Below, piece by piece: positions 1 through 31,267 of a DNA stretch of 64,000 nt (position 1 is its first letter; each line of letters begins with the position of its first letter). The notes below the pieces were generated by a model, which was not told where the DNA came from, made no database searches, and saw only the letters and a list, made by a program, of their open reading frames with translations. The position numbers and the translations under genes are program-made. This DNA comes from Escherichia coli O127:H6 str. E2348/69 (GTDB lineage Bacteria; Pseudomonadota; Gammaproteobacteria; Enterobacterales; Enterobacteriaceae), in NCBI RefSeq assembly GCF_000026545.1, contig NC_011601.1. One strand, 5' to 3'.

Positions 1-64
1 ACACCATCGCCAACATTACCTCCGGCAGACTAAAGCCTTGTTGATTCCTCAGGGAAGCTGACAT
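1..64 (-). CDS. ppdC: prepilin-type protein PpdC, 5' portion only (gene continues beyond window start)
   Basis: Minus-strand ATG at 62-64 followed by [21 protein letters not shown], a prepilin-like N-terminus; overlaps ygdB stop as in a ppdA-ppdB-ygdB-ppdC operon. Confidence 0.6.
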
Positions 65-456
65 AACGCCCTCTCTTTCAGCGGACAAAAATCGCTCCAG
101 CCGCGTGGCGAAAAAACAATGTTTCCATCGATGACTTCGCCTGTTCGCCACAACGAAACGCCTTCATAACCGGCAATCAATAAGGCTTCATTATCTGCCA
201 GTAAACGCAGACAAACCCGGGCACCGGTGGCAGAATACAGTAAGCACTGAACTGCGGGCTGCATCTGCCAGGAGTGCATTTTTCCCCACTCCAGCGCCGA
301 CTGAACGATGGCCTGGCGGCGCAATGACTGACTTTCCATGCTCACGCGAGAAGCAAAACTGCGATCCTGCTGACTCATTCCTTGCAATAGCAAGCTACCC
401 AAAATCAGCAGCATCAGGACCAGAGCCAGTGACGAAACACCCTTTTCGCGGTTCAC
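49..456 (-). CDS. ygdB: prepilin-like operon protein YgdB (135 aa)
   Basis: Track ORF 49..456, 135 aa; position between ppdB and ppdC. Confidence 0.85.
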
Positions 457-1016
457 AGGTTGGATCCTGTCACGCTATAGCTGGCATCCACCACGGTTTG
501 CGGATCAGCCTTGCTGGCAGCGTGCATATTAACCGTCAACACCGGCGAGAAGCCGCTGACATCCTGACGTACGACCTGAAAAGTGTCGATAATGATGGCA
601 TCCGGATTAGTGACTTTATCCCAGCCCTTACCTTCACAGGATGTCGCACCGCGTAGCGTTTCCAGCACATGCTCCTTCAGACGAAATCCAATCTGGTCGG
701 ACTCTTTTACCGGTTCGCGATCCCAGATACCATTACTGTTCGCATCCCACTGCACAATGACACAGTCACCCTGTCCGACAATTTCCAGCCCTTCGCCCGT
801 ACAGCTGCCATGGCAATAACCCGCCCTCTGGAGATGCTTCGCGACGGTAAATACCCGCAGCCAGATTTCATCATCCAGCGCCAGCTTACGGGTGTTCGTT
901 AAACTTTCACGCTGTAACGCAGGCAGAAAGCGTGCAGCCCCCAGCAACAATACGCTACTGATCGCCATAGCAATCAACACTTCCAGCAGAGAAAAACCTT
1001 GCTCTTTTACAGGCAT
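453..1016 (-). CDS. ppdB: prepilin peptidase-dependent protein B (187 aa)
   Basis: Track ORF 453..1256 trimmed to internal Met giving [17 protein letters not shown] prepilin N-terminus; start overlaps ppdA stop. Confidence 0.85.
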
Positions 1017-9969: not shown

Positions 9970-13336
<3,367 letters not shown>

Positions 13337-16322: not shown

Positions 16323-17258
16323 ATGGCCGCCGTTAACTTACGTCATATTGAAATTTTTCATGCGGTAATGACCGCCGGAAGCCTGACTGAGGCGGCACAC
16401 TTGCTACACACCTCACAGCCAACCGTCAGCCGCGAACTGGCGCGCTTTGAGAAGGTGATCGGGCTGAAATTGTTTGAGCGCATACGTGGACGATTACATC
16501 CTACCGTGCAAGGACTGCGTCTGTTTGAAGAAGTGCAACGATCCTGGTACGGACTGGATCGCATTGTCAGCGCCGCAGAAAGTCTGCGCGAGTTTCGCCA
16601 GGGAGAACTGTCTATTGCCTGCCTGCCGGTCTTTTCGCAATCTTTTTTACCGCAGCTCCTGCAACCCTTTCTGGCACGTTATCCCGATGTCAGCTTAAAC
16701 ATCGTGCCCCAGGAATCACCGCTACTTGAAGAGTGGCTCTCGGCCCAGCGTCATGATTTAGGACTCACTGAAACGCTCCATACGCCTGCGGGAACAGAAC
16801 GTACCGAATTACTCTCTTTAGATGAAGTGTGTGTGTTACCTCCGGGCCATCCGCTGGCGGTAAAAAAGGTATTAACGCCGGATGATTTTCACGGTGAGAA
16901 CTACATCAGCCTTTCCCGTACTGACAGCTATCGCCAGTTGCTGGATCAATTGTTTACTGAGAATCAGGTTAAACGACGCATGATCGTAGAAACCCACAGC
17001 GCCGCGTCAGTCTGCGCAATGGTACGGGCGGGGGTAGGCGTTTCGGTGGTTAACCCGCTCACCGCACTGGATTATGCGGCAAGCGGTTTAGTGGTGCGGC
17101 GGTTCAGCATTGCGGTTCCGTTCACTGTCAGCCTGATCCGCCCCCTGCACCGCCCGTCATCAGCGCTGGTGCAGGCGTTTAGTGAGCATTTACAAGCGGG
17201 ATTACCGAAACTGGTCACTTCTCTTGACGCTATTTTGTCGTCAGCTACGACAGCATAA
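16323..17258 (+). CDS. lysR: LysR transcriptional activator of lysA (311 aa)
   Basis: Track ORF 311 aa, LysR-type HTH N-terminus; divergent from lysA. Confidence 0.95.
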
Positions 17259-19762: not shown

Positions 19763-19772
19763 GCCATGCGAC
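19763..19772. repeat. direct repeat GCCATGCGAC flanking IS copy 1 (second copy at 21323-21332)
   Basis: Identical 10-mer immediately outside both ends of the element; 9 or 10 bp may be true target-site duplication. Confidence 0.8.
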
Positions 19773-21322
19773 CTGTCTCTTGATCAGATCTCCTGATCAA
19801 GAGACTTCATCACCAGGTAACCCTCAACCATATCCTGAAGTCTGAACCAGCCATCCCACATGACTACCCAACCGGGGCGACCGGTGCGTTTGCTGTCATG
19901 CCATCGCCCCAGTTTCGCCAGTTTCAGACAGGCCCATTTCAGTGTCGGCATCTGTGACGGAAGCGGTTTTCCTTCCAGCTTAACCCACAGCAGTTTCCAC
20001 TCTGTCGGCGTCAGTATTTTCTCACAGCTGTCATTTTGTGTTTCTTCACTGATACCGCCCTGCCGCAGGCCCAGCACCCGCACCGCGATAAACGCCTTGA
20101 TAACCACCATGCGCTCGAGGTTATCCCGGGTCTGCATTCGCAGCGATTCCACACATGTACCACCACTTTTCCACGCCTTGTGGTATTCCTCTATCAGCCA
20201 GCGTCGCTCGTAATGGCTGACGATACGTCGCGCATCGGCGGCACTCGCCACTTTTTCTGACGTCAGCAGATGCCAGCAGGCGCCGTCCTCTGCCTGCTCC
20301 CGGCAACAGACATACGTGAGCGGGAGCGCCTGGCCGCTGTTGTCGGGATTTTTTATGCTGACTTCGCTGTAACTGATGAACATCCGGGCCTGGCGGGCTG
20401 CCCGCCCGCCTTTTTGCATCACATTCAGCGTGTGGCTTCCCGCGGTTGCCAGGACTTCCGGCAGTTCGAAGAGCTTGCCGGGTGCTTCTTCCAGCCGGCG
20501 ATTCTGTGCTGCACGCACCACGAAGCGCTGCCCGTGGCTGACTTTATAATGCAGGTAATGCCAGATATCCGCTTCCCGGTCACAGACAGTGATTACCCGT
20601 TTCTGTATCTCCCCCAGCCGTTCGGCCATGCGCTCCGAAGCCTGCTGCCAGCGGTAACTTTCTTTTTCTTCATAGGGACGTTCTTTTCGCTGGTGCTTAA
20701 CACCGTAGGTGTCCGTGGCACGACTCCAGCGCTGCTGTTCGATAAGACCGACTGGCAGGGCGCTGTCGGGGGCGTACATCAGGACAGAGTGAGCCAGCAG
20801 CCCGCGCGTCTTCGGGTTAGTGGTGGTATTCCCCAGGTCATCAGATGCCGTACTGTGACTGAAGTTAATGGTGGTGGTGTCTTCCAGCGCGAGGAGCAGC
20901 GGATGAGCCTCACATGCCCTTACAGTGGCGGTAAATCCGGCTTCGGCAATGGCTTGCGGGGACACAGACGGGTTACGTATCAGGCGGTACGCACCTTCAA
21001 CCTGAGCAGTGGACTGGGATGATTTCACAATAGAAAGACCTGCATGCTGAGCGAGAGAAGAGGCCAGTGACACAAGGCGTCGTGTACGACGCGGATCACC
21101 GAGACGGGCATGTCCAAACTGCTCGTTAGCCCATGAATAACAATCAGAAAGTACCATAACAGACCCGAAGAAAATGAAATATAAGAGAAGATCAACAGGT
21201 GAGGAAAAAGTTCAAAAAATCGCTGCCGGGGAGGAAGGAAACTACCGGATGGAAAGAGTCCCCCTAAAGCAGACTGACAGACATCACAAATCCCCGGGTG
21301 GGGATTTGTGTATAAGAGACAG
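19773..21322 (-). mobile_element. IS4-family, IS50-like insertion sequence, copy 1 (1550 bp)
   Basis: Termini CTGTCTCTTGATCAGATCT (left) and revcomp CTGTCTCTTATACACAAAT (right), matching IS50 inside and outside ends as I recall them; single 457-aa transposase ORF; flanking direct repeat; identical second copy at 43835-45384. Confidence 0.9.
19784..21157 (-). CDS. IS50-like (Tn5-type) DDE transposase (457 aa)
   Basis: Tn5 Tnp-like motifs LALEDTT, VCDREAD and YERRWLIEEYHKAWKSG (DDE triad and YREK signature); stop codon lies inside the left terminal repeat as in IS50. Confidence 0.9.
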   Translation of the reverse strand: MVLSDCYSWANEQFGHARLGDPRRTRRLVSLASSLAQHAGLSIVKSSQSTAQVEGAYRLIRNPSVSPQAIAEAGFTATVRACEAHPLLLALEDTTTINFSHSTASDDLGNTTTNPKTRGLLAHSVLMYAPDSALPVGLIEQQRWSRATDTYGVKHQRKERPYEEKESYRWQQASERMAERLGEIQKRVITVCDREADIWHYLHYKVSHGQRFVVRAAQNRRLEEAPGKLFELPEVLATAGSHTLNVMQKGGRAARQARMFISYSEVSIKNPDNSGQALPLTYVCCREQAEDGACWHLLTSEKVASAADARRIVSHYERRWLIEEYHKAWKSGGTCVESLRMQTRDNLERMVVIKAFIAVRVLGLRQGGISEETQNDSCEKILTPTEWKLLWVKLEGKPLPSQMPTLKWACLKLAKLGRWHDSKRTGRPGWVVMWDGWFRLQDMVEGYLVMKSLDQEI

Positions 21323-21358
21323 GCCATGCGACAGGGTCATAAAAGTAAGAGGAATGAA

Positions 21359-25938: not shown

Positions 25939-25948
25939 TATCCGTTGT

Positions 25949-25990
25949 GGATGGTTCAAAATTGCTTCAATTTTGAACCATCCCAGTTTT
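25949..25990 (+). terminator. rho-independent terminator of yqeG
   Basis: 15-bp perfect stem GGATGGTTCAAAATT / AATTTTGAACCATCC with 5-nt loop, followed by T-run, 11 bp after yqeG stop. Confidence 0.75.
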
Positions 25991-26253
25991 CATAATGTTC
26001 ATTTGTTATTATTCCGCCCTATCACTTCTCTCGTAATATTATATAATTATAAGCTAGTTAAACACACAAAGAGTTCTGAACATCTTAAATAAGACTATTT
26101 AAGATACATGACGATTGCATTGCGTAAACGCTTTTTATTTACAAAAAATGGGGAAGTATTACGGCGATTGCGAAAAGTCTGAAGCGCTTGAATTAAGATA
26201 ATATAGAAAATCAGATACAACAAAAATGGCAGGTAGATGATGTGAAGATAAAT

Positions 26254-26327
26254 TGGAGCGGGCGAAGGGAATCGAACCCTCGTATAGAGCTTGGGAAGCT
26301 CTCGTTCTACCATTGAACTACGCCCGC
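26254..26327 (-). tRNA. glyU: tRNA-Gly (anticodon CCC)
   Basis: Minus-strand 74-nt sequence GCGGGCGTAGTTCAATGGTAGAACGAGAGCTTCCCAAGCTCTATACGAGGGTTCGATTCCCTTCGCCCGCTCCA with anticodon loop CUUCCCAAG and encoded CCA. Confidence 0.95.
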
Positions 26328-26405
26328 TTCGAGATGCGTAAGGCATTATAAACCTTACGCTCTCCTTAGCAAGTACCACGCTGCTGACTGCTGATTAATT
26401 CGCCA

Positions 26406-27613: not shown

Positions 27614-29872
27614 ATGCGCGTCGATGCCATTGCTAAGGTCACCGGGCGGGCACGATATACTGACGATTATGTTATGGCGGGCATGTGTTACGCGAAATAT
27701 GTACGTAGCCCTATCGCACATGGTTATGCTGTAAGTATTAATGATGAACAAGCCAGGAGTTTGCCGGGCGTCCTGGCGATTTTTACCTGGGAAGATGTGC
27801 CAGAAATCCCATTCGCCACGGCAGGGCATGCCTGGACACTTGACGAAAACAAGCGCGATACCGCCGATCGCGCACTGCTAACTCGCCATGTTCGTCATCA
27901 TGGCGACGCCGTTGCCATCGTCGTGGCCCGCGATGAACTCACGGCAGAAAAAGCGGCGCAATTGGTCAGCATTGAGTGGCAAGAATTACCCGTTATCACC
28001 TCGCCAGAAGCGGCGCTGGCAGAAGACGCTGCACCAATCCATAACGGTGGCAATTTACTGAAACAAAGCACGATGTCGACGGGTAATGTCCAACAAACAA
28101 TCGATGCCGCCGACTACCAGGTACAGGGGCACTATCAGACTCCCGTTATTCAACATTGTCATATGGAAAGCGTGACATCGCTGGCATGGATGGAGGATGA
28201 CTCGCGAATTACCATCGTTTCCAGCACCCAGATCCCGCACATTGTTCGCCGCGTGGTTGGTCAGGCGCTGGATATTCCCTGGTCATGCGTACGAGTCATC
28301 AAACCGTTTATCGGTGGCGGTTTTGGTAATAAACAGGATGTACTGGAAGAGCCAATGGCGGCATTCCTGACCAGCAAACTTGGCGGCATTCCGGTGAAAG
28401 TTTCCCTTAGCCGTGAAGAGTGTTTCCTCGCAACCCGTACCCGCCACGCTTTTACTATTGACGGGCAAATGGGCGTGAACCGCGACGGAACATTGAAAGG
28501 TTATAGTCTGGATGTTCTGTCTAACACCGGCGCTTATGCATCTCACGGGCACTCCATTGCTTCTGCTGGGGGGAATAAAGTCGCTTACCTTTATCCTCGT
28601 TGTGCCTACGCTTACAGTTCAAAGACCTGCTATACCAACCTCCCCTCGGCTGGTGCGATGCGTGGTTATGGCGCGCCACAAGTCGTATTTGCCGTTGAGT
28701 CTATGCTTGATGATGCCGCGACAGCGTTAGGTATTGATCCTGTTGAAATTCGTTTACGCAACGCCGCCCGCGAAGGAGATGCTAATCCGCTCACGGGAAA
28801 ACGTATTTACAGCGCAGGGTTGCCGGAGTGTCTTGAAAAAGGCCGGAAAATCTTTGAATGGGAAAAACGCCGTGCAGAGTGCCAGAACCAGCAAGGCAAT
28901 TTACGTCGTGGCGTTGGCGTCGCCTGTTTTAGCTACACCTCTAACACCTGGCCTGTCGGCGTAGAAATAGCAGGCGCGCGCCTGTTGATGAATCAGGATG
29001 GAACCATCAACGTGCAAAGCGGCGCGACGGAAATCGGCCAGGGTGCCGACACCGTGTTCTCGCAAATGGTGGCAGAAACCGTGGGAGTTCCGGTCAGCGA
29101 TGTCCGCGTAATTTCGACACAAGACACCGACGTTACACCATTCGACCCCGGCGCATTTGCCTCACGTCAGAGCTATGTTGCCGCGCCTGCGCTGCGCAGT
29201 GCGGCACTGTTATTAAAAGAGAAAATCATCGCTCACGCCGCAGTCATGCTACATCAGTCAGCGATGAATCTGACCCTGATAAAAGGCCATATCGTGCTGG
29301 TTGAACGACCGGAAGAGCCGTTAATGTCGTTAAAAGATTTGGCGATGGACGCTTTCTACCACCCTGAACGCGGCGGGCAGCTCTCTGCCGAAAGCTCCAT
29401 CAAAACCACCACTAACCCACCGGCGTTTGGCTGTACCTTTGTTGATCTGACGGTCGATATTGCACTGTGTAAAGTAACCATCAACCGCATCCTCAACGTT
29501 CATGATTCGGGCCATATTCTTAATCCGCTGCTGGCAGAAGGTCAGGTACACGGCGGAATGGGGATGGGCATTGGCTGGGCGCTATTTGAAGAGATGATCA
29601 TCGATGCGAAAAGCGGCGTGGTCCGTAACCCCAATCTGCTGGATTACAAAATGCCGACCATGCCGGATCTACCACAACTGGAAAGCGCGTTCGTCGAAAT
29701 CAATGAGCCGCAATCCGCATACGGACATAAGTCACTGGGTGAGCCACCCATAATTCCTGTAGCCGCTGCTATTCGTAACGCGGTGAAGATGGCTACCGGT
29801 GTTGCAATCAATACACTGCCGCTAACGCCAAAACGATTATATGAAGAATTCCATCTGGCAGGATTGATTTGA
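27614..29872 (+). CDS. xdhA: xanthine dehydrogenase, molybdopterin-binding subunit (752 aa)
   Basis: Track ORF 27575..29872 trimmed to Met giving MRVDAIAKVTGRARYTDDY; aldehyde oxidase/xanthine dehydrogenase Mo-binding domain. Confidence 0.93.
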   Translation: MRVDAIAKVTGRARYTDDYVMAGMCYAKYVRSPIAHGYAVSINDEQARSLPGVLAIFTWEDVPEIPFATAGHAWTLDENKRDTADRALLTRHVRHHGDAVAIVVARDELTAEKAAQLVSIEWQELPVITSPEAALAEDAAPIHNGGNLLKQSTMSTGNVQQTIDAADYQVQGHYQTPVIQHCHMESVTSLAWMEDDSRITIVSSTQIPHIVRRVVGQALDIPWSCVRVIKPFIGGGFGNKQDVLEEPMAAFLTSKLGGIPVKVSLSREECFLATRTRHAFTIDGQMGVNRDGTLKGYSLDVLSNTGAYASHGHSIASAGGNKVAYLYPRCAYAYSSKTCYTNLPSAGAMRGYGAPQVVFAVESMLDDAATALGIDPVEIRLRNAAREGDANPLTGKRIYSAGLPECLEKGRKIFEWEKRRAECQNQQGNLRRGVGVACFSYTSNTWPVGVEIAGARLLMNQDGTINVQSGATEIGQGADTVFSQMVAETVGVPVSDVRVISTQDTDVTPFDPGAFASRQSYVAAPALRSAALLLKEKIIAHAAVMLHQSAMNLTLIKGHIVLVERPEEPLMSLKDLAMDAFYHPERGGQLSAESSIKTTTNPPAFGCTFVDLTVDIALCKVTINRILNVHDSGHILNPLLAEGQVHGGMGMGIGWALFEEMIIDAKSGVVRNPNLLDYKMPTMPDLPQLESAFVEINEPQSAYGHKSLGEPPIIPVAAAIRNAVKMATGVAINTLPLTPKRLYEEFHLAGLI

Positions 29873-29882
29873 GGATAACATC

Positions 29883-30761
29883 ATGTTTGATTTTGCTTCT
29901 TACCATCGCGCAACCACCCTTGCCGATGCCATCACCCTGCTGGCTGACAATCCGCAGGCCAAATTGCTTGCCGGTGGCACTGACGTACTGATACAGCTTC
30001 ACCATCACAATGACCGCTATCGCCATATTGTTGATATCCACAATCTGGCAGAGCTGCGGGGAATAACACAGGCGGAAGATGGCGCGCTGCGAATCGGCTC
30101 CGCGACAACATTTACTCAGCTCATTGAAGATCCCGTAATCCAACGCAATCTCCCGGCGTTATGTGCTGCGGCTGCATCAATCGCCGGGCCGCAGATCCGT
30201 AATGTCGCCACCTACGGCGGAAATATTTGCAACGGTGCCACCAGCGCAGATTCTGCCACGCCAACGCTAATTTATGACGCGAAACTGGAGCTCCACTCCC
30301 CATGCGGTGTTCGTTTCGTCCCGATTAATGGCTTTCACACCGGGCCGGGCAAAGTGTCTCTTGAGCATGACGAAATCCTTGTCGCCTTTCATTTTCCGCC
30401 ACAGCCGAAAGAACACGCGGGCAGCGCGCATTTTAAATATGCCATGCGCGACGCAATGGATATTTCAACAATTGGCTGCGCCGCACATTGCCGACTGGAT
30501 AACGGCAATTTCAGCGAATTACGCCTGGCATTTGGTGTTGCCGCGCCAACGCCGATTCGCTGCCAACATGCCGAACAGACTGCACAAAATGCGCCATTAA
30601 ACCTGCAAACGCTGGAAGCCATCAGCGAATCAGTCCTGCAAGATGTCGCCCCGCGTTCTTCATGGCGGGCCAGTAAAGAGTTTCGTCTGCATCTCATCCA
30701 GACGATGACCAAAAAAGTGATTAGCGAAGCCGTCGCCGCGGCGGGGGGAAAATTGCAATGA
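29883..30761 (+). CDS. xdhB: xanthine dehydrogenase, FAD-binding subunit (292 aa)
   Basis: Track ORF 292 aa, CO dehydrogenase flavoprotein-like; overlaps xdhC start. Confidence 0.93.
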
Positions 30762-31237
30762 ATCACAGCGAAACAATTACCATCGAATGCGTCATTAACG
30801 GAATGCCTTTTCAGCTTCACGCCGCGCCAGGAATGCCGCTTTCGGAACTACTCCGAGAACAAGGGCTTCTTAGTGTCAAACAAGGTTGCTGCGTAGGCGA
30901 ATGCGGTGCCTGTACGGTGCTGGTCGACGGCACTGCGATAGACAGTTGCTTATTCCTTGCGGCCTGGGCTGAAGGAAAAGAGATCCGCACGCTGGAAGGT
31001 GAAGCGAAAGGCGGTAAACTTTCTCATGTCCAACTGGCTTATGCGAAATCCGGCGCAGTGCAATGCGGGTTTTGTACGCCGGGCCTGATTATGGCTACCA
31101 CGGCGATGCTGGCAAAACCACGCGAAAAACCATTAACCATTACGGAAATTCGTCGTGGACTGGCGGGAAATCTTTGTCGCTGCACGGGGTATCAGATGAT
31201 TGTAAATACAGTTCTGGATTGCGAGAAAACGAAGTAA
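30758..31237 (+). CDS. xdhC: xanthine dehydrogenase, [2Fe-2S] subunit (159 aa)
   Basis: Track ORF 159 aa with cysteine motifs [11 protein letters not shown] and CGFCTPG ... CRCTGY. Confidence 0.93.
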
Positions 31238-31243
31238 AAGGAT

Positions 31244-31267
31244 ATCCGGCCTGAATTCAGGCCGGAT
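31244..31267. terminator. palindromic hairpin between convergent xdhC and ygeV
   Basis: Perfect 24-bp palindrome ATCCGGCCTGAATTCAGGCCGGAT between the two stop codons. Confidence 0.55.

Follow-up and report, generated by a model that had tools for sequence, protein, structure and literature searches.

Short stop/start overlaps in known operons of Escherichia coli E2348/69 and their probable role in translational coupling

Introduction

In the trp operon, the trpE/trpD and trpB/trpA pairs carry TGATG overlaps and represent classical translational coupling, which was shown genetically. Among native E. coli pairs with an ATGA overlap, four of five were coupled and the Shine-Dalgarno (SD) motif contributed in four of five, with bioB/bioF as the exception to coupling (PMC6728339). 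Depending on the pair, the SD in that study was anything from essential to dispensable. Coupling was lost in published E. coli experiments when the genes were spaced about 20 nt apart. The modal distances between E. coli genes are -4, -1 and -8 nt (negative values being overlaps), and distances from -8 to +10 nt were treated as predictive of reinitiation by Huber et al. 2023 (PMC10666635). For the pairs tested in that study, coupling required no more of the upstream gene than its last 15 nt, and pairs at short distance showed a 4.5-fold enrichment for subunits of heteromeric complexes (PMC10666635). The field has not settled which particle reinitiates, or whether it does so by 30S scanning, 70S scanning or RNA unfolding (PMC12548453).

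The window analysed here is a stretch of 64,000 nucleotides from E. coli O127:H6 str. E2348/69 (NC_011601.1). A preliminary description of it had recorded recurrent stop/start overlaps of 1-8 nt as indicating translational coupling. The overlaps are real, ordinary and already known, and they belong to the operons xdhABC, ygfK-ssnA-ygfM-xdhD, ygfT-ygfS, aas-lplT and ppdAB-ygdB-ppdC, all known in E. coli. Judged from their geometry, their conservation and published experiments on other pairs, they most likely mediate translational coupling by termination-reinitiation between co-transcribed genes (probability about 0.7).

Results

Overlapping gene pairs in the window

RefSeq CDS coordinates of E2348/69 (NZ_CP059840.2) were mapped onto the window, which is the reverse complement of that record (w = 981057 - record position), and start codon, stop codon, frame, length and internal stops were verified for every CDS in the window. 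Seven co-directional adjacent gene pairs overlapped in this mapping.

29883-30761, plus strand: xdhB, FAD-binding subunit, upstream gene (RefSeq mapping, Pfam domains)
30758-31237, plus strand: xdhC, 2Fe-2S subunit, downstream gene (RefSeq mapping, Pfam domains)
30758-30761, plus strand: xdhB/xdhC overlap, ATGA, 4 nt; xdhC start 30758-30760, xdhB stop TGA 30759-30761
49965-49968, plus strand: ygfM/xdhD overlap, ATGA, 4 nt; ygfM 49189-49968, xdhD 49965-52835
57659-57663, minus strand: ygfT/ygfS overlap, TGATG, 1 nt (shared base 57661)
57663-57661 and 57661-57659, minus strand: ygfT stop and ygfS start; ygfT 57661-59580, ygfS 57173-57661
11156-11163, minus strand: aas/lplT overlap, ATGAGTGA, 8 nt; aas 11156-13315, lplT 9970-11163
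11163-11161 and 11158-11156, minus strand: lplT start and aas stop; the lplT start falls within aas, 8 nt from its end
1007-1016, minus strand: ppdA/ppdB overlap, 10 nt, end of ppdA and start of ppdB
453-456, minus strand: ppdB/ygdB overlap, GTGA, 4 nt; the ygdB GTG start lies on the ppdB stop
49-64, minus strand: ygdB/ppdC overlap, 16 nt; ppdC continues past the left edge of the window

Inspection of the junction sequences showed that the overlaps previously described for xdhB/xdhC, ygfM/xdhD, ygfT/ygfS and aas/lplT were present where they had been placed and agreed with RefSeq. The reported size range of 1-8 nt was correct for five of the seven junctions and too narrow for ppdA/ppdB (10 nt) and ygdB/ppdC (16 nt); these two pairs, at distances of -10 and -16, also fall outside the range of -8 to +10 nt, within which the other five lie. 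The 6.5-kb segment around xdhB/xdhC was 100% identical to the E2348/69 chromosome and had matches of lower identity in 5,416 of 5,426 complete E. coli genomes.

Several further pairs nearly abut: ygfK/ssnA (+2), uacT/yqfG (+1), lgt/thyA (+6), prfB/lysS (+9), xdhA/xdhB (+10) and rppH/ptsP (+12). The 3' end of prfB, a gene annotated with a programmed frameshift, is truncated by the right edge of the window (63831-64000) and is spaced 9 nt from lysS. The convergent genes lysR (plus strand) and ygeA (minus strand) overlap by 14 nt at their 3' ends (17245-17258), an overlap that is absent from the preliminary description.

Overlaps were not enriched in the window. Distances of -8 to +6 nt were found in 8 of 35 co-directional pairs (23%), compared with 707 of 2,987 pairs (24%) genome-wide in E. 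coli K-12 (PMC10666635; Fisher p = 1.0). The finding was already known: for K-12, Supplementary Table S2 of Huber et al. 2023 (PMC10666635) gives the same distances for each of the seven overlaps and for the near-abutting pairs. The overlaps had been called ordinary, and both their frequency and their earlier cataloguing bear this out. A start-like triplet occurred at -4 or -1 in 9 of 50 CDS stops when the sequence alone was considered, indicating that the short motif itself is cheap. A real gene start was placed exactly at -4 or -1 in 4 of the 22 close co-directional pairs, defined as those spaced -20 to +60 nt (binomial P = 0.002 against uniform placement).

Start codon alternatives

All in-frame ATG, GTG and TTG codons around each downstream start were listed, and Pfam domains were mapped. 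No other in-frame start was present before codon 16 of xdhC, where the Fer2 (2Fe-2S) domain begins at residue 13, or before codon 22 of xdhD. An in-frame GTG at 57664 is available to ygfS, whose first Cys motif occupies residues 12-15; its use would produce GTGA and a 4-nt overlap, so that both starts overlap ygfT. PpdB and PpdC need a short leader peptide before the G/FSL prepilin cleavage motif (PpdB prepilin motif, residues 4-27), which excludes later starts, and earlier starts would lengthen the overlap.

Alternatives that remove the overlap exist only for lplT (GTG at codon 5) and ygdB (ATG at codon 15), and neither was retained. Codon 5 of lplT is TTA in Enterobacter cloacae, GTA in Salmonella enterica and GTG in Citrobacter rodentium, whereas the ATGnGTGA of the aas/lplT junction is invariant in these species and the distance is -8 in all three. 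Codon 15 of ygdB is CTA or TTG in two Citrobacter species, both of which keep GTGA at the junction and MNRE(K/R)GVSSL at the N terminus. Public annotation of ygdB is inconsistent, with 135 aa from GTG 456 in most records and 121 aa from ATG 414 in some E. coli records; the conservation in Citrobacter favours the GTG at 456 as the probable start. The -10, -4 and -16 distances of the ppd junctions were also kept in the two Citrobacter species. For ygfM/xdhD and ygfT/ygfS the comparison covered K-12 only, in which the 42 nt around ygfM/xdhD were identical. Reassignment of start codons, which the preliminary description had named as the refuting condition, removed none of the seven when in-frame starts, Pfam domains and cross-genus DNA alignments were considered.

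Conservation of the xdhB/xdhC junction

One genome per species was scanned with XdhC, giving 80 loci from Enterobacterales, Desulfobacterota, Krumholzibacteriia, Chloroflexi and Clostridia, and the XdhB-like stop and the possible XdhC starts were located at each locus. With starts in the other species assigned by script, xdhB and xdhC overlapped at 74 of 78 resolvable species-level loci from several phyla, and the geometry was -4 or -1 in 62 of them. The distance was -4 only at 44 loci, -1 only at 11, and either -4 or -1 at 7; other overlaps (-7 to -17) were present at 12 loci, 4 loci were without overlap, and 2 were left unresolved. Within Enterobacterales, ATGA was found in 31 of 33 loci. 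A GGAGG or GGGGG motif was located 7-10 nt upstream of the xdhC start throughout the orthologous loci.

The xdhA/xdhB junction of the same loci served as a control. Its spacing ranged from -8 to +177 nt, with an overlap in only 5 of 67 loci, and from +2 to +10 nt within Enterobacterales. The xdhB/xdhC distance stayed constant while xdhA/xdhB drifted, indicating a conserved trait of this pair and not general compaction. The constant FAD/Fe-S junction beside a drifting Mo/FAD junction provides a clean example of pair-specific selection and fits the published trend.

The start of xdhA itself differs between annotations: RefSeq gives 765 aa from 27575 in E2348/69, and the K-12 protein has 752 aa, with its equivalent start at 27614, 13 codons apart. 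No terminator-like site was found on the plus strand at the xdhB/xdhC junction. The convergent genes xdhC and ygeV are separated by 39 nt, and this gap holds a 10-bp perfect palindromic hairpin, ATCCGGCCTGAATTCAGGCCGGAT (31244-31267), that looks like a shared bidirectional terminator.

Slippery heptamers at the end of xdhB

Within the last codons of xdhB (GCG GGG GGA AAA TTG CAA TGA), two formal -1 slippery heptamers, G_GGG_GGA and G_GGA_AAA, stand in tandem in the xdhB frame (30743-30752). The xdhC frame, which is -1 relative to xdhB, stays open over the 33 nt that precede the xdhC ATG. Slippage of some ribosomes, giving an XdhB-XdhC (FAD + 2Fe-2S) fusion protein in Escherichia, nevertheless appears most improbable. 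A slippery heptamer was present in only 9 of the 80 orthologous loci, G_GGA_AAA was confined to Escherichia and one close relative, and no stable downstream structure was predicted, so programmed -1 frameshifting was rejected. None of the other six junctions had an in-frame slippery heptamer within an open downstream frame. The xdhB heptamers are most simply read as a by-product of a G-rich SD followed by a lysine codon.

SD strength and RNA folding

SD strength was calculated as the duplex energy with the 16S 3' end and ranked among 961 internal ATGs.

49953-49957, plus strand: xdhD SD, GGAGG, -11.3 kcal/mol, top 1%
30743-30749, plus strand: xdhC SD-like G run, GGGGGGA, -9.4 kcal/mol, top 0.4% of internal ATGs
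ppdB SD: -8.5 kcal/mol, top 1%
ppdC SD: -8.3 kcal/mol, top 1%
ygdB SD: -4.1 kcal/mol, background
lplT SD: -3.5 kcal/mol, background
ygfS SD: -3.3 kcal/mol, background

The GGGGGGA of xdhC lies within the last codons of xdhB, 8 nt upstream of the xdhC ATG. The genes ygfS, lplT and ygdB, with weak SDs, are predicted to rely most on coupling; for xdhC, xdhD, ppdB and ppdC, with strong SDs, independent initiation would also be possible. Folding lent no support to a masking structure. Compared with dinucleotide shuffles, the seven 103-nt junction segments gave z-scores between -0.88 and +1.70, and none of them was the more stable. In the predicted minimum free energy fold of the ppdA/ppdB junction (984-1036), the ppdB SD (AAGGAG) pairs with ppdB codons 8-12, which encode the conserved GFSLL. 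The ygfS start lies within a predicted hairpin.

Strain-specific lesions and other features

The xdhD reading frame of E2348/69 is interrupted by an internal TAG (51228-51230, plus strand) where K-12 has CAG for Gln422 (Q422*), and the gene is a pseudogene in this strain; the preliminary description does not record this stop. Among 5,175 E. coli genomes, only 3 carried the exact Q422* allele, and each of these belongs to the O127:H6 lineage. With xdhD truncated, coupling at ygfM/xdhD would be without a functional product in E2348/69. The operon carries a second lesion further upstream, where an ISEc13 element (IS4-like, 43835-45384; site 43826-45393), with a 9-bp duplication of its target, CCACCATGC, on either side, divides ygfK into two pseudogene fragments. 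This insertion junction was found in this assembly only, among 5,426 complete E. coli genomes. About 30 places in the E2348/69 genome are related to ISEc13, and a second copy (99.9% identical, 19772-21326) lies between araE and kduD. The reductive uric-acid degradation pathway, which was described recently (PMC12507026), thus carries two independent lesions in E2348/69 (xdhD Q422* and ygfK::ISEc13), and for strain biology these are more useful than the overlaps.

In the region 25939-26405, yqeG is directly followed by tRNA-Gly (26254-26327) and actS. At this locus K-12 presumably carries the gene block yqeH to ygeQ, which we take to be an ETT2 remnant; the block appears to be absent in E2348/69.

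Discussion

The overlaps confirm gene starts and operon structure within the window. Their use as support for operon calls was justified, as the xdhABC, ppdAB-ygdB-ppdC-recC and aas-lplT operons are on record. If the overlapping pairs are coupled by termination-reinitiation, a ribosome completing the upstream gene would terminate within a few nt of the downstream start codon, and the ribosome or its 30S subunit would reinitiate there, the mRNA never being released. Reinitiation would be assisted by an SD motif within the final codons of the first gene. The output of the second protein would thus be tied to that of the first, an advantage where, as in these pairs, the two products are partners in one complex. 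Experiments published for other E. coli pairs lead us to infer that translation of the second gene is dependent on that of the first; the -4/-1/-8 geometry, the surviving starts, the conservation of xdhB/xdhC across phyla and the interacting products point the same way, and the earlier reading of the overlaps as coupling is supported to this extent. The genes ygfS, lplT and ygdB are predicted to be the most sensitive to upstream polar or nonsense mutations. The conserved -10 and -16 overlaps of the ppd genes, if coupled, would need the terminating ribosome to back up 10-16 nt, and such a backward move, if true, would lie beyond the reinitiation range shown experimentally.

For xdhC, xdhD, ppdB and ppdC, the four genes with a strong SD, the chief rival is independent initiation, in which free 30S subunits would start each downstream gene de novo on its own SD, as in bioB/bioF, and the overlap would be a tolerated by-product of compaction or of stop/start codon drift. 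The strength of these SDs is what makes it plausible, together with the bioB/bioF precedent of an ATGA overlap with independent initiation, the lack of any predicted stable structure that would block free ribosomes, and the chance occurrence of start-like triplets at 9 of 50 stops. However, xdhB/xdhC kept the -4/-1 geometry across phyla while xdhA/xdhB drifted, which argues for selection on the overlap itself; the SDs of ygfS, lplT and ygdB reached only background level, and four of five tested E. coli pairs were coupled. Overlap without coupling is therefore the less likely account of the junctions, although it deserves more weight than either of the explanations that follow.

Coupling could also arise by RNA unfolding, one of the two accepted models (PMC12548453), in which mRNA structure masks the downstream ribosome-binding site until the helicase action of the translating ribosome opens it and new ribosomes initiate. 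The predicted pairing that sequesters the ppdB SD and the predicted hairpin at the ygfS start would suit such a mechanism, but no junction segment exceeded its shuffles in stability, and the 15 upstream nt that sufficed in the pairs of Huber et al. 2023 also argue against it, leaving RNA unfolding improbable. It is more doubtful still that the overlaps are an annotation artefact, with downstream starts mis-assigned and the true starts beyond the upstream stops. The in-frame GTG of lplT, the in-frame ATG of ygdB and the 121-aa YgdB of some public records would fit an artefact; yet these two codons vary in relatives that keep ATGnGTGA, or GTGA with MNRE(K/R)GVSSL, and no other start in xdhC, xdhD, ygfS, ppdB or ppdC would leave the N-terminal Fe-S or prepilin motifs intact. 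Coupling by termination-reinitiation remains the preferred reading.

The products of several pairs are known to interact. XdhB and XdhC were scored as complex subunits by Huber et al. 2023, in whose table aas/lplT and ygfM/xdhD were scored "not complex" (PMC10666635). However, LplT and Aas form a 1:1 complex (PMC11416262), and XdhD co-purifies with a protein of about 30 kDa taken as YgfM (PMC12507026), and these interactions provide two updates to those scores. The aas/lplT overlap is not mentioned in PMC4666226. The ppdAB-ygdB-ppdC genes are a Sxy-regulated minor-pilin operon, the equivalent of comNOPQ (PMC12616744). For YgfT/YgfS and for the ppd minor pilins, partnership in a complex is an assumption.

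Compared with the known systems, the window pairs most resemble the termination-reinitiation pairs hyfH/hyfI, astD/astB, ydbH/ynbE and menD/menH (PMC6728339, PMC10666635), with which they share the -4/-1/-8 geometry and, at xdhC, xdhD, ppdB and ppdC, a strong SD inside the upstream gene; like them, they encode interacting proteins. However, the experiments of those papers were done on other pairs than those of the window, and ppdA/ppdB (-10) and ygdB/ppdC (-16) depart from the predictive range of -8 to +10 nt. In bioB/bioF, likewise a pair from a native E. coli operon with an ATGA overlap of 4 nt, bioF translation began de novo even though its SD is very weak (Huber et al. 2019, PMC6728339). 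With coupling by RNA unfolding (PMC12548453) the window pairs share a downstream ribosome-binding site inside the upstream coding sequence, but differ in that no unusually stable masking structure was predicted at the seven junctions. The ygfT/ygfS pair has the 1-nt stop/start overlap of the trp pairs, although the genetic proof of coupling belongs to trp only.
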